Shown in pieces: positions 21,647 to 64,000 of a stretch of 64,000 bases of DNA. The stretch is taken from NCBI GenBank assembly GCA_001771575.1, contig MEUD01000001.1:991277-1055276 (forward strand). Reading direction: 5' to 3'. Position 1 is the stretch's first letter. The number at the start of each line of letters is the position of its first letter. The position numbers and the translations under genes are program-made. The stretch comes from a candidate division WOR-1 bacterium RIFOXYB2_FULL_45_9 (lineage in GTDB: Bacteria > Margulisbacteria > WOR-1 > O2-12-FULL-45-9 > XYB2-FULL-48-7). The notes below the pieces were generated by a model that had not been told where the DNA came from, did not search any database, and was given only the letters and a program-made list of their open reading frames with translations.

Positions 21647-21651
21647 AGATA

Positions 21652-23343: not shown

Positions 23344-23354
23344 TGGAGGGGCAA

Positions 23355-34468: not shown

Positions 34469-34489
34469 GATCCGGTATTATAACCCGAA

Positions 34490-45438: not shown

Positions 45439-46587
45439 TTAATTAACAATCGTCAGCTTAAACTTGCCGAGGAGCCGACCTTCGTCCCGGGCGACGATGG
45501 TCCCGACATAGATGGCGTTCCCAGCCTTGTATCCCTGGTCGGTAGTTCCATCCCAGGTCACTTTATTTATACCAGCGGAACCACCTTCAGTCGCCGCCGG
45601 GAGAATGAAATGTTTGATCCTGGTCCCATCAACCCCGATAACGTAGATCTCGATATTGGCGTCAGCCGAGAGGCCGTATTGAATGGTAACCGTTCCGTGC
45701 CTGGGGATGCTGTAAGGGCTGGGGAAAGTGAGCGGCGTGCCGACTAAGCGGAGCGGCCCCCCCATGACCTCGACCGTAGCGTATTTGGTCATTGAAGCCT
45801 GGATCCCACCGGAAGCGGCAGTCTTGGCCGATACCGCAAAGGTGTGGAGCCCGTCGGTCAATGGCTCGGTGACCGTGTATTTTAAGCTCAAGGCGCGGAT
45901 CAACTCCGTGGCCGAAGCGAGCGTTTTGCTGGTAACAAAGGAAGCTTCCATCTGATAGGTCTTGGGACTTGTCGATTGCGGGTCCAGGATGATCGTGTAG
46001 TCGCTGACGTTGTCGGAAAGGGTATGCGGCTCATTGACCGACAGGTCAACTTTGATCGTCGGATTAGCTGAAACGATGAACGGATCGCCCTTTTCAACCA
46101 GGGCCGGCTGATAGAGGCGGTTGCCGAACCAGATCTTCATCCCCATTTCGGCGTCGCCTGCCGGCGGTGAGATCCCGCCCCCCAAAACCAATGTTAGGTC
46201 AACCTGATCCCACCCCTTGCCGGAGATAGTGACGTCAGTTGGGTTGGCCCCGTAATTATCAGGCCCTCTTTCGGTGGCAACCTTATAAGTTTTTCCCACG
46301 GTCAGAACCGCCGGCCAGATCGACATGGCGTTGACCATGAACTTGGTGCCGTAAATGGTGGTGGTAACGTAATTTCCACTAACAAGCTCTGCCTCGTTCT
46401 CAAAAAAGTAGACGATCCGGCCGTCAGCCAGAATGTCGGCCCCGGCGCCCGACTTGGCATCCGGGCAATTACCGACCACCCAATAACCGGGGGTCATAAA
46501 CTTGAGCTGTGTCGCAGGCGTTGCCACCTGCGCGAACGCGGCTGAAGTCAAAACCAACAAACCGATTATTAAGGCTAGTCTCTTCAT
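45439..46587 (-). CDS. Secreted paralog-family protein with C-terminal FlgD-Ig/T9SS-CTD-like domain
   Basis: Signal peptide 'MKRLALIIGLLVLTSAAFA'. 'YWVVGN' N-module. C-terminal 'IEIYVIGVDGTRIKHF...VTWDGTTDQGYKAGNAIYVGTIV...KFKLTIVN'. Confidence 0.7.
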   Translation of the reverse strand: MKRLALIIGLLVLTSAAFAQVATPATQLKFMTPGYWVVGNCPDAKSGAGADILADGRIVYFFENEAELVSGNYVTTTIYGTKFMVNAMSIWPAVLTVGKTYKVATERGPDNYGANPTDVTISGKGWDQVDLTLVLGGGISPPAGDAEMGMKIWFGNRLYQPALVEKGDPFIVSANPTIKVDLSVNEPHTLSDNVSDYTIILDPQSTSPKTYQMEASFVTSKTLASATELIRALSLKYTVTEPLTDGLHTFAVSAKTAASGGIQASMTKYATVEVMGGPLRLVGTPLTFPSPYSIPRHGTVTIQYGLSADANIEIYVIGVDGTRIKHFILPAATEGGSAGINKVTWDGTTDQGYKAGNAIYVGTIVARDEGRLLGKFKLTIVN

Positions 46588-46592
46588 ATTTA

Positions 46593-47717
46593 TTATTTGC
46601 TCAAAGTCACACTGCTGTCGGCGCCAACCGAGATATATAACGCCGCTCCGGCGTTAAGCGGGCTGTTAAGGTCATAGCCGGGGGTCTGGAAGGTGACATT
46701 CCCCGATCCGTCAAACGTAGCACCGCCTAACTTCTGGCTGGTCGCGTCCCAAACAGAGATCGCGGTGACGCCGCCGATCGCGGTCACCAGTTTTTGCGTG
46801 CTGTCCACGGCAACCGGCGCCCCGCCGTTGACCGAGATGTTCATTGAACCGCCAAACGGCAAGCCGATCCCGTTGATCCCCGCTTTCAGGACGTAGCTAA
46901 CGGTCCCGCCGCCGGTAAGCCCTCCGGCAAGCGTTGTCCAGTCCTTCACCGTGCTCCAGGGCCCAGATCCATACCAGTTGTTCGCTCTGACCTTAAAATG
47001 GTATGTTCCGGAAGAGAAAGGATTGCTGGTCTTCGGATCATTATCCGGCAGACTAAAACTTGTGCTGGAGATATTAACGACCCGATTAACGTCGTTATCC
47101 GCCGGCTCGGTTTCCGGATCTACCCAGTATTTAACATCGTAAGTAGTCGCCTCGATCTTAGGGGTCCCCATGTCATAAGTAAACGCGATCGACAGTTTCA
47201 ATACCACGTCAGAGGTATAACCCACCCTCTGGTTCGATTCCGACCCGCTGGTAATGACCGGCGCGTTCTTGGGAACATCTGCGAGGAAATCGGTTTTAAA
47301 CTTAACGACATTATACTGGTTGGCCGGTTGAGCGCCGGAAGCGGACGCCATCCCCGCCGATTTACCATAGTAGCTTTTTTGGGTCCGCGGCGGCCCGTCC
47401 CAGCTTCTGATATATACTGTGCCGCCATTTTGGTCCATTTTGTCGTACTGGTGAGTAGTGCCAAAAGTCGTGTAGTTAGGCGTGATGCGTCCCGTCGTCG
47501 CGTTAGGCCCGGGGATTGAACCTGCAAAAAACTCCACGTTCGCGCTGTCAACCGAACCGGGGCCGGAGTAACTCGGGTTAAGCGTTCCGCTCCAAGCGTC
47601 CAAACCATTGAATGGGATCTTCATGATGATACCAGCGCCGAAAGCCTGACTGGAGAGCAAGAGCGCAAGGCAGAGCATCATCACCAACCTTTTTTTAATT
47701 TTACTCAATTTCATCAT
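46593..47717 (-). CDS. Secreted paralog-family protein (FN3-like module)
   Basis: The track ORF starts at 47741, overlapping the upstream gene. ATG 47717/47714 follows AAGGAGG. Signal peptide 'MMKLSKIKKRLVMMLCLALLLSSQAFGA'. Confidence 0.6.
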   Translation of the reverse strand: MMKLSKIKKRLVMMLCLALLLSSQAFGAGIIMKIPFNGLDAWSGTLNPSYSGPGSVDSANVEFFAGSIPGPNATTGRITPNYTTFGTTHQYDKMDQNGGTVYIRSWDGPPRTQKSYYGKSAGMASASGAQPANQYNVVKFKTDFLADVPKNAPVITSGSESNQRVGYTSDVVLKLSIAFTYDMGTPKIEATTYDVKYWVDPETEPADNDVNRVVNISSTSFSLPDNDPKTSNPFSSGTYHFKVRANNWYGSGPWSTVKDWTTLAGGLTGGGTVSYVLKAGINGIGLPFGGSMNISVNGGAPVAVDSTQKLVTAIGGVTAISVWDATSQKLGGATFDGSGNVTFQTPGYDLNSPLNAGAALYISVGADSSVTLSK

Positions 47718-47722
47718 CCTCC

Positions 47723-49126
47723 TTAGAATTTTAACACCCATGGTGTTTTCGCGTTCCCGACGGGAACGTAATAGAACTTGCCATTCGCCAGATTAAACGT
47801 GGCCACCGACAGATCGTTCCAACTGCCGCCGACAAAGGTGGTCAGCGCGAAGGTCTGGCCGGCGGAATCCCACTGATGCAATTGGTCGCCTTCCGTCGGG
47901 ATGATCCCAACTTCCGGCGCGGTCTTTCTTAACGGATACGGATAACCGGTCAGGTTGTATTTGTCGCCAAAATTGACAGTTGGATCGGTGACAAAGCCGC
48001 CCGCGTTTCCAACCATGGTCAGGTATTCATAGCGCGCCGTCGGGCCTTTGACCAGGTAGACGAACATCCCTTCAATGGTCTGGAAGGTATGGGCCGGCCA
48101 GCCGGTGGTCTTGGTCAAAAGCTGGTAACCCTGGCTGGTGTAATCCCAATAATGGATCTGATCGCCGGTCTGCATCTGATCGCCGATAATATTACCCAAA
48201 CTGTAATCGATCGTCCTTAACGGATAACAGATCGCGTTGTATTCGTCGCGCAGTAAAATATTGGTCTTGCCGACCGCCGGAGCGCCGGCAAAAGCGGGAA
48301 GATCATCCGGCGAGCCGCCGGTAACCGTTCCGGCATAGCCTTTATAGTAGACTTCCGGACTGCTGGTCGAGCCGACCGTCCCGACTTGAGCGTTGTGGGT
48401 CAAAGTGTAGGTGGTCGTATTAACCGTAAATGATCCAAAATGCGCCGGGTAGCCCCCCACTAAAGCGTTGCCGTCAAACACCTGGTACCAAACGTTGGGA
48501 ACAAACTCTTTTGAGTACTGCCCCCAGCCATTACCGGTCATTACAAATATTTTTGGATTAGTTCCGCCAAACTTTGCCGGGTCCCAAACCACGTTAATAT
48601 TCGAACCCGGAGCGTCTCCCTCCCTAGAGATTGTCATGCCGGAAAACTCGCCCGAAGGGACCAATCCAGCCCCTTCAACCAGTGTAGTCAGCGCCGCCGC
48701 CAGGTTCTTATAGCCGCTGTCGATGTCGGCCTGGGAAATCGCAATTGGGGTCTCGTTTATCCCCCAGCTCCGCAAAACGCCACCGACGGTAAAGTCCTTC
48801 TTTTGGGCGCCGAAATAATAAGTCGCCTGGGTCAGCGGCGTCAGTCCCAGGTCCTCTAAGGCATTGAGCGAGAAATTGCCGCTGGCGTCGGAGCTGGCGA
48901 CCGCGTAGTCAAAGGTCGGAACAAAGCCATTACTGGGCGCTTTGTAAAAGTAGAGCTTAAAGCCGTCCAGGGCCGGCGGAAGGGAGCTCGCGTCCTTTTG
49001 CAGGGCCCCGTTGACCCAGTAAGCGGCCGGGTAAGGGGTCGGTGACTGGGCGGCGAAAGAGACCGCCCCCGGCAGAAGAACTGCCGCCACCAACACCGCG
49101 AATAATATTTTAACCGACTTTGCCAT
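47723..49126 (-). CDS. Secreted paralog-family protein
   Basis: Signal peptide 'MAKSVKILFAVLVAAVLLPGAVSFA'. 'AYWVNG' and 'YYKGYA...APAVGKTNILL' modules. Confidence 0.7.
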   Translation of the reverse strand: MAKSVKILFAVLVAAVLLPGAVSFAAQSPTPYPAAYWVNGALQKDASSLPPALDGFKLYFYKAPSNGFVPTFDYAVASSDASGNFSLNALEDLGLTPLTQATYYFGAQKKDFTVGGVLRSWGINETPIAISQADIDSGYKNLAAALTTLVEGAGLVPSGEFSGMTISREGDAPGSNINVVWDPAKFGGTNPKIFVMTGNGWGQYSKEFVPNVWYQVFDGNALVGGYPAHFGSFTVNTTTYTLTHNAQVGTVGSTSSPEVYYKGYAGTVTGGSPDDLPAFAGAPAVGKTNILLRDEYNAICYPLRTIDYSLGNIIGDQMQTGDQIHYWDYTSQGYQLLTKTTGWPAHTFQTIEGMFVYLVKGPTARYEYLTMVGNAGGFVTDPTVNFGDKYNLTGYPYPLRKTAPEVGIIPTEGDQLHQWDSAGQTFALTTFVGGSWNDLSVATFNLANGKFYYVPVGNAKTPWVLKF

Positions 49127-49139
49127 TCCTAATTCCCTT

Positions 49140-50321
49140 TTATTTGACCGTTCCAGTCAGCCTGTAAGTAAGCACATTGTCATATTTGACCGTTACCTGG
49201 TAGGAGCGTCCTTTAACCAGCGCGGCGCCGGTTATCGCGGCAACGTTTGCCGCCCCGGTGTATTTGGACGAGGAGTCAATGTTCCCCGCGTTATAAACAA
49301 TTCCGGTCAGGCCGACGTGGGTCTGGGTCGTTTCATCATACCAGCCAAAGACGGTAACTGCGTCGGTATTGGCCGGGTTAACCGCGACGTAGGCGGCATT
49401 GATGCTCTTGATCAAACTGTCGACTGTTGTAACAGAAGCGGCGGTATCGTCGGTCACACCGCTGGCAAAATCAAACGGCAGAGAGATGGTGTTGATGCCG
49501 CTCTTACCAATGGGCTTGGTCAGGTTGTACACAATGGTGATCGGACCGCCGCCGACCGCGGTAACCGTAGAGAAAAGTATGTCGGCCGACCATCTCGCGT
49601 CAAATGTTCCGCCCTTTTCCTTGGTCTGCGCGTTGTAGGCGTAAGCTTTTAACACATAATTTTGTCCCGCCAGAAAGTTTTCCGGATTCAATTGGAAGGT
49701 TACTTTGCCTGGAGCGCCGCTGACATCTCCCTGGGCGACGATCGGGACCTGGCCCGCAAGCCGAACTTCATAATGATATCCGGTCGCGCCGTAATAGCTC
49801 GGCGCGTAATTCCCGGTAAATGGGGCTTCCGCCTTAACTTCCAGCGTAGCGGTAATGATCGGCTTGATGGCAAGGGTAAAACCTATTTGCGACGCCAGCC
49901 CGGACGGCGGCGGCGGCGTGTCGATAATTGTCTGCAACCAGGTATTGACCGTGATATCGACCGGTTCGCCCATGGCTGTATAACCGGCCGATAAACTGAT
50001 AGTTCTGTCCTTGGCGCCGCCTGGGGCGCCGGCGTCGCTGGCCGTTAACCTCAAGGTCGCCGAGCCGGCGTTGGCGTCATTGGCCACGGTGTATGGGCCG
50101 CCCGGAGTAATACTCCCCGCGGTAATATCTCTGGATTCAGTAAAAGGAGTGGAAGAATCGGAGAAAGCAGCTTTTCCCCCGTTGGCTGGAGTTCCCGGGA
50201 CCAGATTGACCGAGTTTGTGACAATAGAGAAAAGCCTGGCCTCCGCCGGAATAACAAACAGACCGATCAGGAAAATTGCCACCACCCAACTTAATTTTTG
50301 TTTTCTTTTCATCATATTCAC
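49140..50321 (-). CDS. Secreted paralog-family protein
   Basis: Signal peptide. 'GINTISLPF' module. Confidence 0.6.
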   Translation of the reverse strand: MNMMKRKQKLSWVVAIFLIGLFVIPAEARLFSIVTNSVNLVPGTPANGGKAAFSDSSTPFTESRDITAGSITPGGPYTVANDANAGSATLRLTASDAGAPGGAKDRTISLSAGYTAMGEPVDITVNTWLQTIIDTPPPPSGLASQIGFTLAIKPIITATLEVKAEAPFTGNYAPSYYGATGYHYEVRLAGQVPIVAQGDVSGAPGKVTFQLNPENFLAGQNYVLKAYAYNAQTKEKGGTFDARWSADILFSTVTAVGGGPITIVYNLTKPIGKSGINTISLPFDFASGVTDDTAASVTTVDSLIKSINAAYVAVNPANTDAVTVFGWYDETTQTHVGLTGIVYNAGNIDSSSKYTGAANVAAITGAALVKGRSYQVTVKYDNVLTYRLTGTVK

Positions 50322-50328
50322 TCCTTCT

Positions 50329-51972
50329 TTATTGATACCCCTGAATTGACGGCGTCAGATTCCAATTTATCGGATTGACCGTTCGGGAACGATAGTAAAG
50401 CGGGGTCGCGTTGATCACATCAACGCCGGTCACCCCCGGCTGGGGAGCCCAGGTCCCGTCGGCCTTCAGGAACGAACAGGTATTAAAGCCATTGTTAAGC
50501 CGTCCATAGACCCGGTCGGCCTGTTCCCAGTTGTCGTTCTTTGTCCCAACGTCAAGCTTGATCAAATTAAGGTCCATTTGTCTCGGATAAGGGATCCCGA
50601 CAACATTCCAGTTTTGGGTGATCGTGTATGCCGATACCGTGTTAAGCGGCTTAACGTTCCCGACGATCGAAAAGACCTTGTCGGCATCGGTCGATTTGGT
50701 CAAGAGATATAAGCCCTGTTGCGGGTCGCTAATCGCCGCGTTCGCTCCGGGGACGGCGACCCAAGAATTGCCGTCGTAATAGCTGACCCGGTTCCAGCCG
50801 CTGTTTTCAAAACTGAAGATCCTAACGGAAGTCGCCGGTTCCGAACCAGGAGTGTACGCCCCCTGCTTGCCTAAGATCAAGTTTGGATCGCCCGGCAGAG
50901 CAAGGAAAGGAGAGTTAAATAAGGTCCATTTTTTGCCACCGGCAACAACCACATTGACCTTGCCGACTGCCGGAGCCGTCGCGAATACTCCGCCCTGGGC
51001 AACCGCCTTATAATATACCTCGGCATAGCCAGCCCCAACCTGTCCCTGATGGGTAATCCCATTAGCCGCTAAAGTAAATTCACCCGTATAAGCCGACTCA
51101 ATCGCGCCATTTTCATATACTTTTACCCAATTAGTTGGAGCATCGGTATAAACCCCAACCCCAGAGCCGGTCAGCATCCAAATTGCCGGGTTGTTAATCA
51201 TAAGAGGAGCCCAGCTAATGGTCGTTGAGGCGTTCAGGCCATCTCCGTCGCGTTCAATGTACAGCCCGGTATCAACAATTCCGCCCCCCTTGAGCGCGAA
51301 GTTGACCCAGGAGACTTTGGTTGGGCTAACAGCAGTGGATTTTGTTGCGGGATCGTAACTTGAGGCAACTGCTGTAACACCATGGTCATTACCGGTATTA
51401 AATGTTTGGCTAAATAAATATACGCCATTGGCGCCAGTAGTGGTAGCCGCGCCGTCCGGCAATTCGGACATACCCGCGCCGGCGATCATTTGTTTGGTCG
51501 CTTCACTGGAAACATATCCGGCGATCATCCCACCGCTGAAATCATTTGGTCCTCCACCGGTCACCAAACTCAAGTCGACATCAATATACCCTTTATCCCA
51601 ATTTACCGAAGCAATCTCGGCGGTCCCCATATTTAAAGGCGGGGTAGAAGATCCCCAATGCCTGACAATTGCCATGATAAATACAGGCTTGCCGTCAACC
51701 TCAAGCCAATTTTCTTTTTGATGAAAATATTTTAATTCATAAATATTGAACTTGAACGTTCCGTCACTATTAACTGTAACCTGAAGATTATTGACAGTGC
51801 TACCGTAATCATTGTTAAACACAATTAATTTTCTGGTATCAGTTGCGGTCCAATTGTTAATTTTCCCATTAACCCAATAGAAAGGCATCGTCGGCGCCTG
51901 CGGGTCGGCCGCGAAGGTAGCGCCGGTTATAGCCGCTACCGCAATCATCATTATGATAAACTTTTTAATCAA
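50329..51972 (-). CDS. Secreted paralog-family protein
   Basis: Signal peptide 'MIKKFIIMMIAVAAITGATFA'. 'FYWVNG' and 'VYYKAVAQGG...APAVGKVNVVV...WTLFNSPFLALP'. Confidence 0.7.
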   Translation of the reverse strand: MIKKFIIMMIAVAAITGATFAADPQAPTMPFYWVNGKINNWTATDTRKLIVFNNDYGSTVNNLQVTVNSDGTFKFNIYELKYFHQKENWLEVDGKPVFIMAIVRHWGSSTPPLNMGTAEIASVNWDKGYIDVDLSLVTGGGPNDFSGGMIAGYVSSEATKQMIAGAGMSELPDGAATTTGANGVYLFSQTFNTGNDHGVTAVASSYDPATKSTAVSPTKVSWVNFALKGGGIVDTGLYIERDGDGLNASTTISWAPLMINNPAIWMLTGSGVGVYTDAPTNWVKVYENGAIESAYTGEFTLAANGITHQGQVGAGYAEVYYKAVAQGGVFATAPAVGKVNVVVAGGKKWTLFNSPFLALPGDPNLILGKQGAYTPGSEPATSVRIFSFENSGWNRVSYYDGNSWVAVPGANAAISDPQQGLYLLTKSTDADKVFSIVGNVKPLNTVSAYTITQNWNVVGIPYPRQMDLNLIKLDVGTKNDNWEQADRVYGRLNNGFNTCSFLKADGTWAPQPGVTGVDVINATPLYYRSRTVNPINWNLTPSIQGYQ

Positions 51973-52069
51973 CCTAATTCTCCTAATTTATCCTCAAACT
52001 CGCTAAGCGTGAGCCACACCTTCCACTCCCCTCTGCCTCTTGCCTTCTCCTATTTACCCAATCCCCACT

Positions 52070-53317
52070 CTACGGACCGTTCTTGATAATAATGGTCGTC
52101 TTTGAACTCGACGGCCACAAATTCGTCGCCGGATCTTTCCCAATATAAACCTGATAGCCGACGTTCGGTTCGAGCTTAAGCGCGATGAGGGCGGCCTTGG
52201 CCGTCCCATCCGGGTCGTTATTCGGGATCATGATGCCGGCATCAACTTGCTGGTTCGGATCCCATTTGCCAAAAGTAGAAATAAATTTCTTGCCAGTATT
52301 TTTTCCTGCTACGATATTCACTACCTTTATTAAATCGTATGCCGTTTCAATTTTGCCCAGGCTATTCCCATCAACGTCCGTAGCAAACCATGTTCCGGTC
52401 ATGGTATTTGCCGGCATCGGCATGGCAAAGAAGTTAAAACCAGATTTATTAGTTACAACTTCAAAGGTTATCGGATATGTAAGCGGACCGCCGCCAAGCG
52501 CCGTCCCTGAATACGCGTAGTCTTTCGGATCGCTCCACTTATCGGCAAAACTATTGCCGTGCATTACCCTAAAAGTATAAATCTTTCCCGGTTTTAATGT
52601 CCCGTCCGGCAGACTAAGAGTTTTGCTCGCCAAATCACCAGGGGCTGTTTTTTTGTCGCTGGTTCCTTTTTCCGTGTATTCCCAGCTCTGCCTGGTAATT
52701 TCACGAACACCCTGCCCCGCTCCAGGCGCGGGCTGGGCGGAATAAACTTTAACCGAACCGCTGGTCGTATCAGGTTGGACCAACCAGGAGAGGGTGGTAT
52801 CAAACTGGGTTATAAACGGAATGAATGGCTCGTCGGCCTGATAAGTCGTGCTAAAAGAAACATTCAGCTTTACTGGCGGCGCCGGCGGATTGGGGACCGA
52901 AACCGCCTGATTGTTATAAAAAGCGCCCTGGATGGGAGCGACTGAATTCCAAACCCTGACATAATAAGCGCCGGCGGGAACTTTATAATAATAATCGAAT
53001 TCCCCTGCCTGGGTAATTCCCAAGTTTTCATTGTCTTTTCCAACCGTCGTATTATCAGAAGTTAACAGCGATTGGCCGGTGGCTAAAAACCCGGAATTGT
53101 TTCTGTCGGGAGGGGCCACAGATCCCTTGATCAACTGAACAAGACTGCCAACTTTGACCAGCGCGCCGGTTTCGGTAGTAACGCTATAACCAGGAAGAGT
53201 TGTGTCGGTCCAGGTAGTGAAAGTCACGCCATTATCTTCAGCCAGCGCCAAGCCTGCGGAGAGAGCGATAAAAAGAAATAATGCCCCTATCCTAATTTTA
53301 ATTTTTCTCCTGTTCAT
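52070..53317 (-). CDS. Secreted paralog-family protein
   Basis: Signal peptide 'MNRRKIKIRIGALFLFIALSAGLALA'. 'YYYKVPAGAYYVRVWN' and 'FNFFAMPMP'. Confidence 0.65.
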   Translation of the reverse strand: MNRRKIKIRIGALFLFIALSAGLALAEDNGVTFTTWTDTTLPGYSVTTETGALVKVGSLVQLIKGSVAPPDRNNSGFLATGQSLLTSDNTTVGKDNENLGITQAGEFDYYYKVPAGAYYVRVWNSVAPIQGAFYNNQAVSVPNPPAPPVKLNVSFSTTYQADEPFIPFITQFDTTLSWLVQPDTTSGSVKVYSAQPAPGAGQGVREITRQSWEYTEKGTSDKKTAPGDLASKTLSLPDGTLKPGKIYTFRVMHGNSFADKWSDPKDYAYSGTALGGGPLTYPITFEVVTNKSGFNFFAMPMPANTMTGTWFATDVDGNSLGKIETAYDLIKVVNIVAGKNTGKKFISTFGKWDPNQQVDAGIMIPNNDPDGTAKAALIALKLEPNVGYQVYIGKDPATNLWPSSSKTTIIIKNGP

Positions 53318-53335
53318 TTAATAAACCTCCTAATT

Positions 53336-54643
53336 TTACTTTAACAAGGGATCAAATTCCCATTGTAATGGACCAACGGCCGCCTTGCTCCGGTTATACC
53401 AGAATCCCCCGGCGGCGTCAAAATCAAACATTGTCGTTCCCGTCCAGGATCCCGACTGCCTGATAAGCTTCAACAGGCTTCGATTATAAAGCTCGTCCCC
53501 ATCCGCACCCCCATAAGCGTTGGTAAATCCCGCGTTGGCGACCGGCCTGGTAACACAAGAGCTATTACCGATCCTAAGGAAGCCGGCCGAAACGGAATAA
53601 ACTACCTTTTGGGTTGGAACATCTCCGACAAACGTCACCTTTTTAGCGGCGCCGATCATATTGACGTAAAATCCTTCGCCAAGATCAATAGCCATTGCTT
53701 TGTTCCAGGCGTTGTTAACGTATATTGCTTTATCAAGGTTTGCTTTATAAACCTCATCACCGGTGGAGCTATTGGGTGTCAATTGGCCGCCGATAACAGC
53801 CGAAATGTCCGCGCCCCCCTGCGAGTTCATCGGCATGGCGACCAGGTTCCACCCCTTATTTAAATCAATATTAAATTTACCGACCGCCCAGGCGGACTCT
53901 AAGATTGAAGCCCCATTATACAGGTCGTCCTTAACCTTATCCTTCCACATCGCCTTGTAATAATATTCGGTCGCTCCGCCGCCAACCTGTTGGGTATGCA
54001 GGTAATCCTTCCCGTTGACATTTTTTACCAAACTGGAAGTTATGTCGACCCAATCGGTTTTCGCATTATCAAACGCTCCGCCGCCGGCAGCTTTATTGAG
54101 CCCGAAGATCTTTGGCGGTTTTTGGTCGGCCGTTAATTCATCATCGTTCCAGGTCAATTTAATGTCGTTGCCGGACCGGGAAATAAACAACTGGACCGCG
54201 CCGGGGAGGGGAAGGACCGGACCCTGATCGTATTCAAGGGTAAAGTCAACAACTTCAAAGCCTTGGCCGGTTATTTTGACCTCTTTGGGGTTGGCGCCGT
54301 ACTTATCAATTGGGTCTTTCGCCACCGCGGCATAATACGTCGCCGTTGGGTCGATCGGCAAAGAAGCGTGGTTGTAAATATTGAGCATATATGACGCCGT
54401 TCCCATTACTGGTTGAACATTGCCATACGGAGCGGTTGAAACATAGGCTCCGGGCAAAACCTTATAAAATACTACTTGTCTGCTCCCCCATACCGTTGAA
54501 GCCGCGGGGTTCGTCGAATGCATCGTTAAGGTTCCCCTAAGCCAGTACATGGCGTTAAATACCGGCGGCGGCTCCACCGCAAAGGCGGGGAGGGCCGCAA
54601 AAGAGGTAAGTAACAGTAATAATATTAAGCTGAACTTCTTCAC
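53336..54643 (-). CDS. Secreted paralog-family protein
   Basis: Signal peptide 'MKKFSLILLLLLTSFAALPAFA'. 'YWLRG', 'YYYKAMW...AWAVGKFNIDL...GWNLVAMPM'. Confidence 0.7.
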   Translation of the reverse strand: MKKFSLILLLLLTSFAALPAFAVEPPPVFNAMYWLRGTLTMHSTNPAASTVWGSRQVVFYKVLPGAYVSTAPYGNVQPVMGTASYMLNIYNHASLPIDPTATYYAAVAKDPIDKYGANPKEVKITGQGFEVVDFTLEYDQGPVLPLPGAVQLFISRSGNDIKLTWNDDELTADQKPPKIFGLNKAAGGGAFDNAKTDWVDITSSLVKNVNGKDYLHTQQVGGGATEYYYKAMWKDKVKDDLYNGASILESAWAVGKFNIDLNKGWNLVAMPMNSQGGADISAVIGGQLTPNSSTGDEVYKANLDKAIYVNNAWNKAMAIDLGEGFYVNMIGAAKKVTFVGDVPTQKVVYSVSAGFLRIGNSSCVTRPVANAGFTNAYGGADGDELYNRSLLKLIRQSGSWTGTTMFDFDAAGGFWYNRSKAAVGPLQWEFDPLLK

Positions 54644-54651
54644 ATTTCTCC

Positions 54652-55968
54652 CTATTTGCCGACTTCCCTGGTCATTTTAAAGTTGACGATGCTCGGCGAT
54701 ACGCTTACTTGATAAACCTTATTTTCCAGGGTTTCTGTCCCGTTCCCGGCGGTACCGACTGAACCTGTCCAAACGCCGCTGGAGATGGTATACCCTTCCA
54801 TTCTCTGGGAGCTATTGACGTCTTTATTCCACCAGCCGACCGATTTTACGGCGGCCCCGCCGGCAAAAGTATTGATCGCGTCAACTAATCCTTTGACCGT
54901 CTTAGCGGTCAGTTCGGTGCTGGTCAAAGTCTCTCCCTGTTTTGTGTAAAAGATCGTCTTGGTCGGATCAAGAGTAAACTCGAATTGGTTGACCCCCAGG
55001 TCGGCGGTCTTGACAAGATTAAGGACCATTGATTCTCCGGCCACGCCGCCCCCCTCGCCTATGACCGCGACCTTGAAGGGGATCGCGGGACTAGGCGTGT
55101 TGCCAAAATAGTTGACCGCCACGACCCTGGCGTAATAAGTCGCATTCGTGTCGCTGAAGAAAGTCTTATCCGGATCGTTGGTTTTATCCAGCGTATAGGA
55201 TGTCTCATCCAGCTGAATTTTATAAGGGGGGTTTTGCGAGAACGTCGCGTCCCCTTTATTAATTTGCAGCATATAAGACTTTAACGTCCCATCCCCCTTG
55301 ACCTGGATATTGCCGTTCGCTCCCGTCGTTCCATCTTTCCACGTGAAAGAGAGTTGCGAAACCTTCGCTTCTGTCCCTTCGGGATAAAGGTCCTTATTGG
55401 TCGACTCGACTTGTTTAATTAAAGTTATATCAGGAGAATACGGTTTGTCGGCCTTGTAAAGGGTAAAACTCGAGAAAGTTAAATCAACCGGGACCGGATC
55501 ACCCGATGACCAAAAAGATTGTGGCGCCGAATTTCCATAATAACCATCAGTAGTCCAGTATCTAACGTAATAATTTGTGCTGATCGAATGATCAAATTGG
55601 TTTTTTACCGCGAACCCGCCGTTCCCGGCGCCGTAACCAGTAAAATCGCCAACTTTCCCCTTAACCGCTTGATTCAATAATGTCGCGTTATTTGGGTCCT
55701 TGAAAATCGCGTAAGCATCAGTCCCGGATAACGCCTGGGTCGAATCATTGGCAACAGCGGTCGGCGGGTTACTTGGGGACCCTTTGATAAACTGGACAAA
55801 ACCGGCACCTTTAGCGATAACGCTGGCGTTATAATTTTTCAGTGTTGAGTCCGGCACGATTATCCCGATGTTTTGCAGGTTCGCGAAAGCGAGTGAAGAA
55901 GAGAGCGCAATAAATACCGCCGCCATCACCACCACCCTTAGAAATCTATTTATTATCATAATTATCAT
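54652..55968 (-). CDS. Secreted paralog-family protein
   Basis: Signal-like N-terminus 'FLRVVVMAAVFIALSSSLAFA'. Beta-rich. Confidence 0.6.
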   Translation of the reverse strand: MIIMIINRFLRVVVMAAVFIALSSSLAFANLQNIGIIVPDSTLKNYNASVIAKGAGFVQFIKGSPSNPPTAVANDSTQALSGTDAYAIFKDPNNATLLNQAVKGKVGDFTGYGAGNGGFAVKNQFDHSISTNYYVRYWTTDGYYGNSAPQSFWSSGDPVPVDLTFSSFTLYKADKPYSPDITLIKQVESTNKDLYPEGTEAKVSQLSFTWKDGTTGANGNIQVKGDGTLKSYMLQINKGDATFSQNPPYKIQLDETSYTLDKTNDPDKTFFSDTNATYYARVVAVNYFGNTPSPAIPFKVAVIGEGGGVAGESMVLNLVKTADLGVNQFEFTLDPTKTIFYTKQGETLTSTELTAKTVKGLVDAINTFAGGAAVKSVGWWNKDVNSSQRMEGYTISSGVWTGSVGTAGNGTETLENKVYQVSVSPSIVNFKMTREVGK

Positions 55969-55976
55969 TTCCTCCC

Positions 55977-57278
55977 TTAATTATCCGAGTATGTTCTTTC
56001 CCAATTTACCGTCGCTGAAGTTTTTTTCAGCGAATAATAGTACCCATTTGGAATATTAAAACCGAAGTCGGCCGGCACCGTCGGGTTGGCCGACAAATAC
56101 CATTTGCCGTCAGACTTCAAGAAAGCATTTTTCATCCCCCAGGAAGCCGGCGAATTCTTTAAATAAATCTCGTCGGCGCTTATCGGATTGGCGCCGGCGG
56201 TCGTGTTCGCGACATTTAATAGGCCCAAAGAATCGAGCGTTTTGTTTTGCGGCCAGACTACGCCAACCGCGTTAAACCCGGTTTTCATGACTATGATCTG
56301 GTTGCTTTGTGAAACATTTCCCACTGCCGTTATTTTGGCGCTGTTCGCTTTTATTGAAACTAAATAGCCTTTATCCCGACCAACAGTAAACGCGGCCGGC
56401 GTATTAACCGATGAAGACAAGTACCAGCTGCCATTGGTTTTTTGGAAAGCGTTGGTCATTCCCCAAGAAGCAGAATCTTGTTTGTAATATATTTCGTCGG
56501 CATTGATCGGACTATCCTGCTTGGTCAATTGTTGTCCGAATACATTCACAAGGGCATCCCCGCCAGTATTATATGTAAAGGGAAGAGAAACCAGGTTATA
56601 TCCTACGGCCAAGCTCATATTAACCTTCCCCACCGCCGGGGCAACCGCAAAACAGGGCTTGCCATTGTAGAGTGGGTCAGGATCGGTACAGATCGTTTGC
56701 GGGGTAACCCCGGCCTGCAAGCCAAAGTAGAACGCTTCGCCATGGTTAGAGAACCCGGACGGCACCACACTGCCGACTTGTTTGTTGTGATATAAAACGC
56801 CGGTCGCGACAGAGCCGGCATTAAACTGTCCGGCAATTGTTGAGTCGGTGTAAAGCTTCCAGGCGGCGGGATCATTTTTCTGGAACTTTCCGGACCCATC
56901 ACCGGTCAAGACATAAATTTGCGCGCCGGGAGCCTTGGTCGCCTCCCAGGTGATTTTGATATTCTCACCATCACGGGAAATATAAAGAGGGACCGTACCC
57001 CAGGGAGCCGTGTCAATCTTTGTCCCTCCGCCAAACAAACCAAAGAGGCCGGGGATAAACGTTATTGTTCCGCCGGCATCGGTCGTTTTGGGGCCCAAGG
57101 CGTCGCCAACCGCATTATATAGTTGGATAGTATTGCCGGTGTCTTGCAGTCTCGGCCCGGCGCCGTTAATGTTATCATACAGGACCGTGGTCCCGTCTTG
57201 AGATTGCAGTTCATCGGCCATGGCCAATCCAGCCATCACCAACAAAATCAAACTAATTAGGGCCCACTTTCTCTTCAT
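55977..57278 (-). CDS. Secreted paralog-family protein
   Basis: The track ORF runs to 57404. The internal ATG 57278 gives signal peptide 'MKRKWALISLILLVMAGLAMA'. 'APAVGKVNMSLAVGYNLVSLPF'. Confidence 0.65.
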   Translation of the reverse strand: MKRKWALISLILLVMAGLAMADELQSQDGTTVLYDNINGAGPRLQDTGNTIQLYNAVGDALGPKTTDAGGTITFIPGLFGLFGGGTKIDTAPWGTVPLYISRDGENIKITWEATKAPGAQIYVLTGDGSGKFQKNDPAAWKLYTDSTIAGQFNAGSVATGVLYHNKQVGSVVPSGFSNHGEAFYFGLQAGVTPQTICTDPDPLYNGKPCFAVAPAVGKVNMSLAVGYNLVSLPFTYNTGGDALVNVFGQQLTKQDSPINADEIYYKQDSASWGMTNAFQKTNGSWYLSSSVNTPAAFTVGRDKGYLVSIKANSAKITAVGNVSQSNQIIVMKTGFNAVGVVWPQNKTLDSLGLLNVANTTAGANPISADEIYLKNSPASWGMKNAFLKSDGKWYLSANPTVPADFGFNIPNGYYYSLKKTSATVNWERTYSDN

Positions 57279-57306: not shown

Positions 57307-57501
57307 TTAACCGACTTTTGCTTCCAGCCGATCAAGCCGCCGGTCCTGCTCCCGGTCCTTGCCGATTGCCAGCATCCGGTCTTCCCGAGCCTTGACCAAC
57401 TCATCCATTACTTTATCGAGAGTCGTCATAATCTCTCGATGGTCATCCTTGGTCGCAAAGACCTCTTTTAATTTTTCAACATCTTTATTGGTTATGGTCA
57501 T
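57307..57501 (-). CDS. Small coiled-coil hypothetical protein (64 aa)
   Basis: ORF with AGGGGA/TAGGG RBS. Highly charged helical sequence. Confidence 0.35.
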   Translation of the reverse strand: MTITNKDVEKLKEVFATKDDHREIMTTLDKVMDELVKAREDRMLAIGKDREQDRRLDRLEAKVG

Positions 57502-57555
57502 TCCCTAATCCCCTAATTACCTAATTTCCCTAGTCACCTAATTACTTAGCATCCT

Positions 57556-60500
57556 CTACTGCAGAGTCACCAGGACCAGGAGTTTTCCTTTTTGTCCAGC
57601 CGGCATTGATTTGAGCGCTTTGCCGATAATCGTCCCCGCCTGGGGGTTGGCCGGCGCTTTCATGGCGTAACCCGGGTTGGCAGAACTGACCAAAAGGTCT
57701 CCCGGCTCGATCGCGCCGCTGGTCGCGTCAACCTTAACGTCATAGCGGCCGGTGTAAACGATCGGCTTACCGTCTTTGAGCTCGTCATTCATCGTCAAGC
57801 CGCCTTCAGTTCCGCGGTAGACGCCGGCAACTTTTGTCGAATTGGCGACATTACAAACTGACATTTGGTCGCTCCCGGAGATCATCATGACGTCACCATC
57901 TTCGGCCGCGCCGGAGACATTGTGCTTTTCGTTCAAGTCAGCAGCCGTAATCGCGGTGTTGGTCCCATAGTATTTCCAAGCGTAAATCCTTCGCCACTTC
58001 AAGCTTGATGTCCCTAAGTAATAACCCGTTGTGTCACCCGTTGAATTAACCTCCGGATAAACATTGCCGTTAAAGGTCGATCCCTGTTTAAATTTCAATT
58101 GAGCAGGGATATTTATGATAAACCCACCAAAGTTCAGTGAATATGCCGCTTTATATTCCATCCAATTAGACAGGTTTTCGGTTGAGTTGGCAAATGTTAC
58201 TTTCGACAAAGAAATGGTCCCGGTTGTGATCTTTGAGGCATCAATGTTAGGGATTGCCGTTGTAGCCAGAGTTCCCGTAACTTTGCTGGCGCTTATGCTG
58301 GCGATCCTGGCGTCAGCCAAGGTCCCGGTCGTGATCTTGGAGGCGTCAAGGTTAGGAATCGCGGTTGTAGATAGAGTCCCAGTAATCTTGCTGGCGCTAA
58401 CGCTCGCGATCCTGGCGTCAGCCAAGGTCCCGGTCGCGATCTTGGAGGCGTCAAGAGCGGGAATATCGGTCGCCGCCAGTGAGCTCTTATAGGCGAGCGA
58501 ACCCAAAGCCGGCTTATTCGCGATGTCGGTCGAATTATAGTCAACCGCGTTCTTGGTCGCCAGCGTTCCTAAACCGGAAATTTTAGAGGTCGACAAAGTC
58601 CCATCCATATCACCCAGCGGCGCCCGGAAAGCACTGATCTTGTGCCAGCTCCCCCCCATCATATCCATATACATTCCGGTCTCACCAAGAGTACCAGAAT
58701 TGACGAAAGCCAACGCGCCGCTACCAGTTGAAGCCGGCAGGTTGGCAACCGAAGCAACCGTCTTAAACGCGCTTGCTCCGGCAATCGCGCCCGCTGCTAA
58801 TTTATCCCCAGTTACTACGCCAGCGCCCAATTGACTTCCGGCCAATGTCCCAGTAATCTTGCTCGCGCTTATACCTGCTAATTGGTTGTCTGTGAATTGA
58901 CCACTGACTTTGCTGGCGCTTAAGCCGGAAATCTGGCTGTCGGCAAACTGGCCGCTGACCTTGCTGGCACTTAAACCAGAAATCTGGCTGTCGGTCAATT
59001 GGCCAACAAGGCTCCCGGCGTTGATGCCGCCGGTTATATCACTTTCGGTTATACTGCTTTTAAAAGCTAACGTGCCCAGGCCATTGCCGGTGATCGCCGA
59101 AACCGCGCCGGAGAGCTTGCTGGTGTTAATGCCAGCCCCAGTCATAATGTCGAGGTTAGATATAGTTCCATCGGCAATCTTGCTGGAAATAACCGAGTTG
59201 TCGGCTAGCTTTGATGAAATAACCGAAAAATCAACTAATTTCGGGCTGGTGACGGAGTTATCAGCCAGCGCCAAACCGGCAACTTCGGTTTTTAAGGCGT
59301 ATTGGGTTAGCACATCTTTTGAAGCAAACGCATTATTTAAGCCTGACAATAACGGATTGGTTGCTTCAGTCATCGGGTTTTGAATAGCCTCCAATAGTGG
59401 GCTGACTACTTTTTGCTTCCAGTCGACCATTTCGTTGTAACCCCATTCTGGTTCAGGCCAAGAGATTGGCGGCCATGGCCCAACGAGTTCTTCCTTCCAA
59501 CCGCCCGGAGGAAACAGGGGTGTGTTTCCAACTCTGGCATAAATCTCTGCCACATTGCTTTGCTTCACGTCAACTCCATTCAATCCTTTATCCTGGCAAT
59601 AATAATAACGATGCTCGTCCGGGCTTGTTCCCGAAACATCAAACAAATTCCTTTCCGAGTTTGCCGGCATATTTACAATTTGGTTATACCAAGAGTCGGA
59701 TTTGATCATATATTCATAGTTTTTACCTGTTAATCTCATCGTCCAATTATATCCAGTGGTCCCCGCCTGGTCACCTGTCGTTCCATCATTGCTATAATAT
59801 TCAAGATCGGCATTATCTTCATAATCATACCCGTCTAATTCGCCAATTTTTACCCATTGCCCCTTCTTTCCAGCAAATGCGCTGGGAGCAACTAAAAATG
59901 AAACATTTTCCGCTTGCGGCGCGTGATTGAATGGCGGGGGGACTGCCGAGACCGCCTTTGCCGCGTTAACAAGCACGTAAGAAATTACGGCACTTTTGTT
60001 TGTCACTTTAACCTTAAAATACCCGTTACCAACCTCTGTCAACACCGCTTTCTCATCATTTTTAGGGGTCATCAGAATTATGGAGTCCGTTTTTACATAA
60101 TCATTGTTAATCTTTAATTGAAACCAACTTGATTCCGCATGGTAGCTTGTTCCCCATAAAACAGTGACACTGTCCAATATTATCCAACCGGCCAGCATAT
60201 TCTTTTTTGGGACTTCGACCGTTCTAATATTAAAGTTATCAACAATGTTTAATGTCCCGCTTAAATTAACTACATCTGATTCCATGCTGATATATCCACC
60301 CGTATGGTTCCTGGAATTTACGGCATTTACAGAATTGATCGAAGAAATTGAGTATGGTGAAGATAATAACGGGGTCTTGTATGATTGCGCATTGTTTTTA
60401 TCGGTTAATAAATAATTCCCCTTATAACTTATTGATAAATAATAATGACTATCAAAATTAGCAGTTATTTTATTCGCGGTTGTCGTTCCAAGCCTTGCCG

Positions 60501-60759
60501 TAAAAAAACCATTCTTGTCAGGATATACTTTAATTGTTTCCTCCCATATCTTTGTCGTGCTAGCAAGGGTCGGCCACAACGCGAAGGTCACATCAACGCC
60601 TAAAGCTGAATCCACGGGTTTGTCGTTTTCTTTTAAAACTCCCTGAACGTTAAAGCTCTTTGTAAGTTCAGCAAACACACACAATTGTAATAGCACAACA
60701 CCAAGCAGTAAAAACAGCCCCAATCTCCCTTTCATAAATACACTCCTTAATTGATTCAT
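57556..60759 (-). CDS. Large secreted repeat protein with tail-fibre-like 18-aa and 34-aa tandem repeats
   Basis: Signal peptide. 'SGLSASKVSGQF.DSQI' x3 and 'DASKITTGTLADARIAS.SASK.TGTL.TTAIPN' x2.4 (102-nt units, about 90% identical). Confidence 0.7.
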   Translation of the reverse strand: MNQLRSVFMKGRLGLFLLLGVVLLQLCVFAELTKSFNVQGVLKENDKPVDSALGVDVTFALWPTLASTTKIWEETIKVYPDKNGFFTARLGTTTANKITANFDSHYYLSISYKGNYLLTDKNNAQSYKTPLLSSPYSISSINSVNAVNSRNHTGGYISMESDVVNLSGTLNIVDNFNIRTVEVPKKNMLAGWIILDSVTVLWGTSYHAESSWFQLKINNDYVKTDSIILMTPKNDEKAVLTEVGNGYFKVKVTNKSAVISYVLVNAAKAVSAVPPPFNHAPQAENVSFLVAPSAFAGKKGQWVKIGELDGYDYEDNADLEYYSNDGTTGDQAGTTGYNWTMRLTGKNYEYMIKSDSWYNQIVNMPANSERNLFDVSGTSPDEHRYYYCQDKGLNGVDVKQSNVAEIYARVGNTPLFPPGGWKEELVGPWPPISWPEPEWGYNEMVDWKQKVVSPLLEAIQNPMTEATNPLLSGLNNAFASKDVLTQYALKTEVAGLALADNSVTSPKLVDFSVISSKLADNSVISSKIADGTISNLDIMTGAGINTSKLSGAVSAITGNGLGTLAFKSSITESDITGGINAGSLVGQLTDSQISGLSASKVSGQFADSQISGLSASKVSGQFTDNQLAGISASKITGTLAGSQLGAGVVTGDKLAAGAIAGASAFKTVASVANLPASTGSGALAFVNSGTLGETGMYMDMMGGSWHKISAFRAPLGDMDGTLSTSKISGLGTLATKNAVDYNSTDIANKPALGSLAYKSSLAATDIPALDASKIATGTLADARIASVSASKITGTLSTTAIPNLDASKITTGTLADARIASISASKVTGTLATTAIPNIDASKITTGTISLSKVTFANSTENLSNWMEYKAAYSLNFGGFIINIPAQLKFKQGSTFNGNVYPEVNSTGDTTGYYLGTSSLKWRRIYAWKYYGTNTAITAADLNEKHNVSGAAEDGDVMMISGSDQMSVCNVANSTKVAGVYRGTEGGLTMNDELKDGKPIVYTGRYDVKVDATSGAIEPGDLLVSSANPGYAMKAPANPQAGTIIGKALKSMPAGQKGKLLVLVTLQ
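58220..58470. repeat. About 2.4 tandem 102-nt coding repeats inside 57556..60759
   Basis: Read directly. A second set of 54-nt repeats lies at about 58895-59020. Confidence 0.6.
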
Positions 60760-62682: not shown

Positions 62683-62714
62683 TAATTTACTTACCACTTA
62701 ATACTTGCCGCTTA

Positions 62715-64000
62715 TTATCTAATATGATGCTGGAGCATTGATCCGGGAATGAGCAGGATCGGCGCCTTCGCGATCCTTTTGCCGGTCGCCGGATCGATAA
62801 AAATCGACATCCCGATCTGGGCGGCGCGATCCGGCCGCAAGTCCTGGGTCTGAGCGGTCAGCCTGGCCCGGTCGGCCCGGACGCTGACGTCCATTTTCTT
62901 TGTCCCAAAAGCGCCGGTTTTGCTGAAAGTTTTGCGGTAGATGACCTGTCCGGTCCTGGCCCCGCTGACAATGATCCACTGGATCTGGTCCGGCAAATTC
63001 CCGTTCTTGGTCCAGACCGTGGCGTAGAAGTTCCCTCCACCGTCAATCTCCACCGGAGTAGTGATCGCCCTGGTCTCCTCAACGGCGGTCCCTCCCCCTC
63101 CCCCTTCGGTATAAAGGTCATAGCGGATTATCCCAACATGACCAGCATCGTCTTCGGCGTAAAAGAAGAGGGTGACCGGCCGGCCATCAGTGTTGGGCAA
63201 ATTTGCGTTAAAAATAAAGTTTTCTACGTACGCTTTGAGCGGCGGAACGGTCGAATCGTCAAACCGGATGTAACTGCTTGGGATGTCTTCAATAACGGTG
63301 ACAATGTTTATCCCTTCATTATACCTGGCAACAACCTTCGCCCTGACCGTGCTCGCGTTCAATGAATTGGGCAAAATGGTTGAAATGTCAAAACTGATCC
63401 TCGGGTTGGGGCTGACGGTCGTGGCAGGGGTTTCGGAAAGAAGGGCTTCCGGATAAACATTGCCGTTGATCGAGACCCTGCTGATCGTTACCTCGCCCGA
63501 TCCATTAATAATAGTTAAGGCGTTAATCTCTCTGGTCGCGGTCGAATCGGGATTGGTGACCAGCAGGTCCCTGGTCCCCGCCTCAATGCTCGGATCGATA
63601 AAAATGTTAATCACAATTTTACTTGCGCTTTCGTAAGTCGTTGACCTGACATCAACATCATAATCAAACGAGGTTTCGCCGCTCTTCATAAAGGCCGATG
63701 ACAGGGGACTGCCGCCCGGATACGACGGCATAAAATCGGTCCCGCTGACTTCGATCGTCCCGATCCAGCCGCGATACCTGGTGCTGGGAGTAAGGGCTGT
63801 TACCGTCGGCGAGCGGAGTCGGTAGATCCGTCCGATGTCGCCGCACATATACGCGTAAACCCCGGCCAGTTCACCCGGATAGACCAGCCGGACAAAAATA
63901 TCCTGAATGTTGGTCGCCGGGGTGTAATCATATATCCCCCAGTTGGACCCGCCGTCGGTCGTGTAAGCGGTCACTCCGCTATCCCCCGCGACCCAACCAA
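62715..64000 (-). CDS. Ig/TIG-like surface protein, 5'-truncated by the window edge
   Basis: The reading frame stays open upstream of the first in-window start (GTG 63974) to the window end. No signal peptide is visible. 'VTALTPSTRYRGWIGTIEVSGTDF' is IPT-like. Confidence 0.55.
   Translation of the reverse strand, partial: GWVAGDSGVTAYTTDGGSNWGIYDYTPATNIQDIFVRLVYPGELAGVYAYMCGDIGRIYRLRSPTVTALTPSTRYRGWIGTIEVSGTDFMPSYPGGSPLSSAFMKSGETSFDYDVDVRSTTYESASKIVINIFIDPSIEAGTRDLLVTNPDSTATREINALTIINGSGEVTISRVSINGNVYPEALLSETPATTVSPNPRISFDISTILPNSLNASTVRAKVVARYNEGINIVTVIEDIPSSYIRFDDSTVPPLKAYVENFIFNANLPNTDGRPVTLFFYAEDDAGHVGIIRYDLYTEGGGGGTAVEETRAITTPVEIDGGGNFYATVWTKNGNLPDQIQWIIVSGARTGQVIYRKTFSKTGAFGTKKMDVSVRADRARLTAQTQDLRPDRAAQIGMSIFIDPATGKRIAKAPILLIPGSMLQHHIR

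Follow-up and report, generated by a model that had tools for sequence, protein, structure and literature searches.

The 64,000-nt window analysed here (candidate division WOR-1 bacterium RIFOXYB2_FULL_45_9, GenBank assembly GCA_001771575.1, contig MEUD01000001.1, positions 991,277 to 1,055,276) contains at its positions 45439-57278 an array of nine consecutive genes for secreted proteins. The array consists of four matched pairs from two alternating, unrelated and undescribed families, here called A and B, and of a tail-anchored ninth protein, g1. We tentatively read it as a conserved WOR-1 operon of four cognate A-B pairs plus g1, whose products may form a colinear surface chain anchored to the neighbouring outer-membrane barrel g11. 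The genetic logic of the array is unusually clear. The original prediction, made from the letters of the same DNA, had taken the nine genes for paralogs of one expanding family; the locus that it pointed to is real and worth following, but was misread in this respect.

Two alternating protein families

All nine open reading frames (ORFs) lie consecutively on the minus strand, as claimed before and confirmed here; they are numbered by coordinate, and transcription proceeds from g9 to g1. All A proteins share a C-terminal module (A module), to which a 'head' or a domain named after its YWVNG motif may be added at the N-terminus. The features are as follows (aa, amino acids).

55977-57278, minus strand: g9, family A, first gene of the array, 433 aa; A module roughly at 55989-57005, after a short N-terminal region without YWVNG domain
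54652-55968, minus strand: g8, family B, 438 aa, partner of g9; C-terminal domain roughly at 54655-55053
53336-54643, minus strand: g7, family A, 435 aa; YWVNG domain roughly at 54230-54574, A module roughly at 53339-54202
52070-53317, minus strand: g6, family B, 415 aa, partner of g7; C-terminal domain roughly at 52073-52495
50329-51972, minus strand: g5, family A, 547 aa; YWVNG domain roughly at 51559-51909, A module roughly at 50332-51264
49140-50321, minus strand: g4, family B, about 391-393 aa, partner of g5; C-terminal domain roughly at 49143-49553
47723-49126, minus strand: g3, family A, 467 aa, NCBI locus tag A3K48_04780; YWVNG domain roughly at 48686-49051, A module roughly at 47726-48643
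46593-47741 (ORF), minus strand: g2, family B, partner of g3, about 373 aa from M10 (46593-47714); C-terminal domain roughly at 46596-46913
45439-46587, minus strand: g1, neither A nor B, last gene, 382 aa, NCBI locus tag A3K48_04770; YWVNG domain roughly at 46180-46512, immunoglobulin (Ig)-like middle, FlgD_ig or type IX secretion system (T9SS)-like C-terminal domain roughly at 45442-45741

The exact g3 protein sequence occurs on many metagenome contigs and is named A3K48_04780 in candidate division WOR-1 bacterium RIFOXYA12_FULL_52_29 (Saganbacteria, Margulisbacteria group). With g2 started at M9/M10, a choice on which the cluster representative P0016 (beginning with MKLSKIKK) bears, seven of the eight intergenic gaps measure 5-18 nt, g8 for instance beginning 8 nt after g9; the spacing of 5-30 nt formerly given for the whole array therefore holds with the exception of the g6-g5 gap of 97 nt. 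Signal peptides had been predicted rightly for all nine proteins, each of which starts with a K/R-rich stretch followed by an h-region (maximum Kyte-Doolittle value 2.5-3.4). None of the nine contains a lipobox, a second membrane-spanning segment or LPXTG; a sortase-type anchor is likewise missing, the last 60 residues being free of LPXTG and no protein having a C-terminal hydrophobic segment. The mature proteins have a pI of 4.9-6.7, contain 0-2 Cys and consist to 29-39% of S, T, N and G. At the DNA level the array holds no repeat other than the 22-nt AVGK motif, and no long direct or inverted repeats.

An all-against-all BLASTP comparison, which had been proposed as a check along with structure prediction and copy number in related genomes, split the genes into two sets. 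Family A comprises g3, g5, g7 and g9 with mutual E = 1e-4 to 1e-15; among g2, g4, g6 and g8 (family B) the BLASTP matches are weak (E = 1e-7 to 0.2, the best ones at 1e-6 to 1e-7), and each of these proteins matches the B profile at E <= 1e-92. The only match of g1 was the N-terminal 100 aa of g7 (E = 3e-8). Hidden Markov models (HMMs) built from each set together with metagenomic relatives recovered their own four array genes and no others (A profile: g9 1e-135, g7 6e-88, g5 1e-88, g3 1e-102; B profile: g8 2e-181, g6 1e-126, g4 4e-92, g2 5e-125), and neither profile matched g1. When A and B were aligned by hhalign, the alignment covered the signal peptides only. Similarity is thus significant within A and within B but lacking between them, and what had been called nine paralogs of one family are two unrelated families and g1.

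The two sequence modules formerly ascribed to all nine proteins are each restricted to four: by regular expression, the YWVNG-like motif occurs in g1, g3, g5 and g7 and is absent from g9, and the motif E.YYK...A[PW]AVGK.N occurs in g3, g5, g7 and g9 (MYWLRG and AWAVGKFN are the g7 versions of the two). An HMM of the YWVNG domain gave E = 9e-37 for g7, 9e-23 for g5, 2e-33 for g3 and 1e-32 for g1, and found no such domain in g9. A looser motif, 'N..S.PF', is present in both families (g3, g7 and g9 as well as g2, g4 and g6), which is probably the reason why a single family was perceived. Distant kinship of A and B by way of this motif was considered and rejected, the A repeats and the B C-terminal domain aligning at a non-significant E = 0.04 (hhalign).

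Structure prediction was instructive for A and poor for B. The AlphaFold2 model of g9 (predicted local distance difference test, pLDDT, 79; predicted TM-score, pTM, 0.77) is all-beta and confident for residues 85-430. The A module consists of an Ig-like domain with the signature 'GTVPL.ISR.G..I.I.W...IY.LTGDG.G.Y..W...H..QVG...E.YYK', an 'A.AVGKVN' strand and a pair of beta-sandwich repeats, each about 100 aa long; the two repeats of g9 are homologous (hhalign probability 96%, E = 2.5e-9). The YWVNG domain, a beta-sandwich, occupies about 115 aa at the N-terminus of g3, g5 and g7 and is followed in g5 by a CarboxypepD_reg-like insert (weak CarbopepD_reg_2 match, residues 150-228). The B proteins are composed of an FN3-like N-terminal part, a 'GGG' linker and a C-terminal domain of about 110 aa; the model of g6 reached a pLDDT of 55, and its Foldseek matches are tandem FN3 domains. 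They end in K, P or similar residues, without an aromatic C-terminal beta-signal. The sorting-domain-like tail that had been noticed on g1 was recovered weakly (Pfam FlgD_ig, E = 1e-3, 19.4 bits against a cut-off of 27). This domain aligned with the C-terminal region of PorU at E = 0.03-0.09 and with the C-terminal domain of the window protein at 16540-19587 at E = 7e-5 (BLAST); TIGR04183 did not match it, and PF13860 was found on several g1 homologs.

Database searches yielded no description of these proteins. Pfam and NCBIfam gave nothing above cut-off for the nine genes and g10, the gene upstream of the array; profile searches of the PDB with A and B returned chance-level matches only. Foldseek found no credible pilin or other fold match for the A model in the PDB (nothing at E < 0.01), and the best match in the viral library BFVD had E = 2e-3 and a low TM-score. 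An exhaustive A profile search retrieved 2,242 cluster representatives (50% identity) at E <= 1e-3, of which 193 at E <= 1e-30. Among them are proteins of 750-5,080 aa that carry the module at the extreme C-terminus, behind passengers with Kelch, beta-helix, He_PIG, TIG, Big or CarboxypepD_reg domains, and every named member comes from WOR-1, Saganbacteria or Margulisbacteria. The homologs of g1, at least 94 and mostly full-length, likewise belong to Margulisbacteria or Saganbacteria wherever they are named. A scan with the A pattern found no relatives in the genome collection and 8 loci only in the metagenomes. A full-text literature search and a term search within the main Saganbacteria genome paper brought up no description of these proteins. 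The array is thus a system of surface-type proteins specific to the phylum, for which the libraries and literature searched hold no description; the A module, present in so many clusters without annotation, would rank among the principal surface-protein modules of the phylum and merits definition as a family.

Gene order and co-variation between neighbours

Twelve loci were compared (the window, L006, L008, L010, L011, L013, L014 and L016-L020). In 24 of the 25 cases that could be assessed, the gene that comes after an A gene is a B gene of the same strand; these include cases in which A is a Kelch/beta-helix protein of 2403 aa or a CarboxypepD_reg protein of 856 aa. The copy number amounts to 1-4 pairs per array. 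The YWVNG domain obeys a second rule: it is present in all 25 A or g1-like proteins encoded directly after a B gene, in none of the 12 that are not, among them the first A of every array (such as g9), and in no B protein (Fisher p about 5e-10; about 1e-7 with three orthologous arrays counted once). In 7/12 loci the array ends with a g1-like gene that combines a YWVNG domain with a C-terminal anchor-type domain.

Co-variation crosses the gene boundaries, the A repeats varying with the N-terminal part of the next B, and the B C-terminal domain with the YWVNG domain of the next protein. Whole-protein distance matrices of A and the downstream B correlate with r = 0.73-0.84 (p = 2e-4), as against r = 0.15 in the shifted register, B versus the next A module. 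Mantel tests at the level of domains (close orthologs excluded, n = 17) traced this to particular parts. The A repeats correlate with the N-part of their own B (r = 0.67, p = 2e-4) and not with its C-part (r = -0.01, not significant); the YWVNG domain of the next protein correlates with the C-part of the preceding B (r = 0.47, p = 2e-4) and not significantly with its N-part (r = 0.12). Within one protein no significant correlation was found, neither between the N-part and C-part of B (r = 0.14) nor between the YWVNG domain and the repeats (r = -0.03) or the Ig domain and the repeats (r = 0.02). Such boundary-straddling co-variation predicts which domains bind which.

The comparison with L020 (GCA_018813745.1), a closer relative whose proA-dapB flank and g1 show 80-85% DNA identity, agrees with these blocks. 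L020 keeps the same nine slots and shares only islands of similarity with the window array. Identity is high in g1 (about 80-95%), in the C-terminal domains of g2 (82-88%) and g4 (82-94%), in the N-domain of g3 (62-95%) and in the Ig-like region of g9 (72-88%), and is 52-61% in the C-terminal domain of g8. It falls to 18-35% in the A repeats (22-28% in those of g3), to 10-35% in the N-parts of g2, g4 and g8 taken together (g2 22-30%, g4 10-32%) and to 20-45% over the whole length of g6. Taken as blocks, the B C-terminal domain with the following A N-domain, like g1, retains 80-95% identity, as against 10-35% for the A repeats with the following B N-part. This is allele replacement at the level of modules, the A repeats and the N-part of the next B being exchanged. 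Small, toxin-antitoxin-like gene pairs (HEPN/NTP_transf_2, DUF4160/DUF2442) are found between the array genes of L020 at its coordinates 1-680, 3302-3818 and 12524-13034, and the last B gene of this locus, called at 130 aa, was shortened by the gene caller.

L008, which is more distant, keeps its collinearity with the window throughout (70-74% DNA identity) and has the same nine genes one-to-one. The ratio dN/dS (ω) of the orthologs is 0.07-0.13 at a dS near saturation, which indicates purifying selection and rules out gene-wide positive selection. A recent expansion as previously proposed is contradicted by these one-to-one orthologs at about 73% DNA identity, by their ω and by the scarcity of DNA repeats; the alleged diversification does exist, as divergent alleles in L020 and as variation from 1 to 4 pairs per array, not as expansion of paralogs. 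Phase or antigenic variation by inversion or gene conversion was rejected on account of the missing long direct or inverted repeats, and no recombinase turned up in the Pfam scans of neighbouring genes. An origin from a prophage or tailocin was also discarded: the flanks are housekeeping genes and synteny is conserved across species.

A possible surface chain and competing explanations

The proposed anchor of the chain, and related genes elsewhere in the window, belong to the following features.

57556-60759, minus strand: g10, repeat-rich, fibre-like secreted protein of 1067 aa directly upstream of the array
60787-62697, minus strand: g11, predicted PorV/PorQ-family outer-membrane barrel with Glucodextran_B and three SLH domains
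62715-63974: g12, Ycf48/BNR-like propeller, cut by the end of the window
16540-19587, plus strand: surface protein with T9SS type-A C-terminal domain, followed by the barrel at 19598-21559
19598-21559, plus strand: PorV-family barrel with Glucodextran_B and three SLH domains (104.8 bits against a cut-off of 90)
21622-23343, plus strand: surface protein with T9SS type-A C-terminal domain (TIGR04183, 28.8 bits against a cut-off of 23)
23343-25265, plus strand: PorV-family barrel with Glucodextran_B and three SLH domains (94.8 bits against a cut-off of 90)

Judged by its match to the NCBIfam model PorV_fam (NF033709; 60.4 bits, E = 2e-16, model positions 11-326 of 326, cut-off 90), g11 is a distant relative of the PorV/PorQ family. 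Its SLH domains match at E = 2e-32. SLH domains were found in g11 and its paralogs only, and none of the nine array proteins matched one in Pfam at E <= 1. Barrels of the g11 type also lie upstream of the arrays in L006, L008 and L010. The plus strand thus has two consecutive pairs of a type-A C-terminal-domain protein and a PorV-SLH barrel; T9SS-type attachment parts fused to SLH domains look unusual for a genome of the Margulisbacteria group.

We assume that the array products, after export by the Sec pathway, join head to tail in the order of their genes. The C-terminal repeats of each A protein would bind the N-part of the B protein encoded next, and the C-terminal domain of that B would bind the YWVNG domain of the protein encoded after it, giving a chain A9-B8-A7-B6-A5-B4-A3-B2-g1 that may form a fibre or layer on the cell surface. 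The first A protein would be the distal end and require no YWVNG domain; in other loci its place is taken by a giant Kelch or beta-helix adhesin. The chain would be closed by g1, which has a YWVNG domain, lacks an A module and is followed by no B, and whose T9SS-like C-terminal domain may dock in the PorV/PorQ-type barrel of g11, the SLH domains of which would tie the barrel to the cell wall. Chain length would then be set by how many pairs an array holds (1-4). We regard a head-to-tail chain as the simplest account of the A-then-B rule, the YWVNG rule and the g1 end together with the domain units that straddle gene boundaries. The presence of a PorV-SLH barrel beside the arrays, and of paired barrels after type-A C-terminal-domain proteins in the window, was counted in favour of the anchoring. 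The signal peptides of all nine proteins and their acidic, Cys-poor and all-beta character were likewise counted for the chain. As to the surface role originally suggested, the array does code for secreted, surface-type proteins in a cell-envelope neighbourhood, and of the functions then named 'appendage subunits' comes near to our conclusion.

Several points weigh against the chain. Binding, polymerisation, surface location and the route of export across the outer membrane are inferred from sequence. Linkage between adjacent stretches of DNA may account for part of the Mantel correlations; pure linkage is argued against by the finding that the halves within one gene are uncoupled. The p-values are optimistic because the loci are not phylogenetically independent, and linkage and shared ancestry inflate the statistics. 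The A-then-B rule has its exception inside the window, where the TIG/Big_5 surface protein of 1,625 aa at 11644-16521 (plus strand) ends in a divergent A module (residues 1240-1621, hmmsearch --max E = 7e-17, missed by the default HMMER filters) and is not followed by a B gene. For the A model a structural relative that could guide its interpretation is lacking, and the low-confidence model of B (pLDDT 55) supports no more than 'FN3-like'. Both the C-terminal domain of g1 and the g11 barrel score below curated cut-offs. No T9SS core component was matched among the window proteins scanned against Pfam (the 64-kb window; NCBIfam was run on ten array genes and a few fragments).

If the array is generalised, it would embody a previously unrecognised principle by which Margulisbacteria/Saganbacteria assemble fibres on their surface and in which two families of unrelated subunits alternate, their order is written in the gene order, the junctions are made by co-inherited domain pairs that straddle gene boundaries, the adhesin heads are interchangeable and a T9SS-like anchor connects the whole to an SLH-tethered PorV-type barrel. 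That all of these elements hold together is rather doubtful at present.

The strict A-B pairing and the co-variation of the A repeats with the B N-part would equally be expected of independent A·B heterodimers that tile the outer membrane as a multi-component, S-layer-like coat, without ordered chain and with the YWVNG domain as a general envelope-binding or lattice-contact domain. Two-protein S-layers are known, for example TfsA/TfsB of Tannerella. The array proteins are acidic, poor in Cys and rich in S, T, N and G, as is typical of S-layer proteins, and SLH-tethered envelope proteins adjoin the array. Such a coat leaves unexplained, however, why the first A lacks the YWVNG domain while g1 has one and no A module, and why the B C-terminal domain co-varies with the next YWVNG domain; moreover, a giant adhesin-type A with a single B is an unlikely lattice unit. 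We consider this explanation unlikely, if the most serious competitor.

Still less probable is a role of B as a dedicated helper in the export, folding or anchoring of the A C-terminal module, which by analogy would make the A module a large, phylum-specific sorting or anchoring signal. It would suit the location of the module, always at the extreme C-terminus of diverse passengers that each have their own B gene next, as well as the PorV-family barrels and type-A C-terminal domains of the window, and it has a precedent in the binding of SprB to SprF and of PG1035 to PorP (PMC9143113). B is not an outer-membrane barrel, however: it matches neither PorP/SprF nor any other Pfam or NCBIfam family, its low-confidence model resembles tandem FN3 domains and the aromatic beta-signal is lacking. 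The A repeats, furthermore, are unlike the C-terminal sorting domains of the window (hhalign E >= 0.1), so that their interpretation as divergent T9SS C-terminal domains was dropped. Coat and helper alike account for the pairing; the YWVNG rule, and the way in which the B C-terminal domain is coupled to the next protein, are left unexplained by both.

Nine paralogs of a single rapidly expanding, diversifying surface-protein family, for which the signal peptides, the tight spacing, the two motifs in four genes each and the allele replacement in L020 might be cited, are hardly credible given that A and B are non-homologous, that g1 fits neither profile and that one-to-one orthologs at about 73% DNA identity with ω about 0.1 go along with an absence of DNA-level repeats.

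Known assemblies and further neighbouring genes

The proposed chain recalls several known systems without coinciding with any of them. Chaperone-usher pili (Pap/Fim) and the type V pili of Bacteroidota (Fim/Mfa) are likewise encoded in one operon with several beta-sandwich subunits, whose order is fixed by pair-specific contacts and which include distinct tip and terminal anchor subunits; in Mfa pili the accessory subunit Mfa5 carries a T9SS C-terminal domain. Unlike chaperone-usher systems, the nine genes, g10, g11 and the part of g12 inside the window gave no Usher, PapD or Fimbrial match in Pfam, and unlike type V pilins none of the nine has a lipobox and the A model matched no pilin fold in the PDB. 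A further difference from pili is the alternation of two unrelated families, with contacts that are proposed to involve whole domains; the results speak neither for nor against donor-strand exchange.

The long tail fibre of phage T4 (gp34-gp35-gp36-gp37) consists of different proteins joined end to end and encoded consecutively in the order of assembly, to which the proposed colinearity of the array would correspond. There is, however, no relation in sequence or fold (BFVD best E = 2e-3), and the array is chromosomal and syntenic, not part of a prophage. With the cohesin-dockerin system on SLH-anchored scaffoldins of cellulosomes the proposed chain would have in common cognate module pairs, an ordered extracellular assembly and a final SLH tie to the wall; it differs in that no cohesin or dockerin was matched, that the array subunits are small and non-enzymatic and that SLH domains sit on an outer-membrane barrel of a diderm.

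In T9SS, attachment depends on pairs such as PorU-PorV and PorZ-PorQ, and cargo with a type-B C-terminal domain has an adjacent PorP/SprF partner (PMC9143113, PMC8545088). The array resembles them in that cargo with a C-terminal module is encoded beside a cognate partner, and the window possesses both PorV/PorQ-family barrels and type-A C-terminal domains, of which the tail of g1 may be a weak instance. In contrast to these pairs, the host belongs to the Margulisbacteria group and not to Bacteroidota or the Fibrobacterota-Chlorobiota-Bacteroidota (FCB) group, the barrels carry fused SLH domains, neither A nor B has a C-terminal sorting domain, B is not a barrel and the Pfam scans of the window revealed no T9SS core gene.

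Should the chain exist, it would represent a novel kind of ordered polymer outside the cell, built from alternating, non-homologous subunits with junction-specific domain pairs, and would give a first view of the surface architecture in an uncultivated sister lineage of Cyanobacteria. Its junction pairs, being swappable, could then serve as orthogonal protein connectors, and parts of T9SS-type attachment would be placed outside the FCB group. The PorV-SLH barrels that are paired with type-A C-terminal-domain proteins bear on the spread of such attachment parts, and the barrels themselves on outer-membrane tethering in Terrabacteria.

Directly upstream of the array, g10 contains tandem repeats of the type 'SASK(I/V)(S/T)G(Q/T)' and has no Pfam match. 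Its C-terminal region resembles an intramolecular-chaperone domain, its positional counterpart in L010 carries Peptidase_S74, and the arrays of L008 and L014 are preceded by a g10-like gene; g10 might form a trimeric fibre. Between g10 and g9, a charged, probably helical ORF of 64 aa without signal peptide is located at 57307-57501 (minus strand), with a run of AATTAGG-like repeats upstream of it at 57501-57548. L001-L004 also have a small ORF called in this position, as do L008/L009 (75 aa).

Two further observations concern more remote parts of the window. The GC content drops to 0.42 at 34001-36000, compared with about 0.53-0.58 elsewhere; this segment spans a methyltransferase gene (34490-35281) and part of an unannotated ORF of 795 aa (35263-37650) and adjoins a PMT_2 glycosyltransferase (37718-39361), and it may represent an acquired glycosylation cassette. 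At 3319-8858 (plus strand), the gene for a Ser/Thr protein kinase of 828 aa precedes that for a PP2C-domain protein of 1,018 aa; the two lie upstream of the surface-protein genes and may constitute a regulatory pair.

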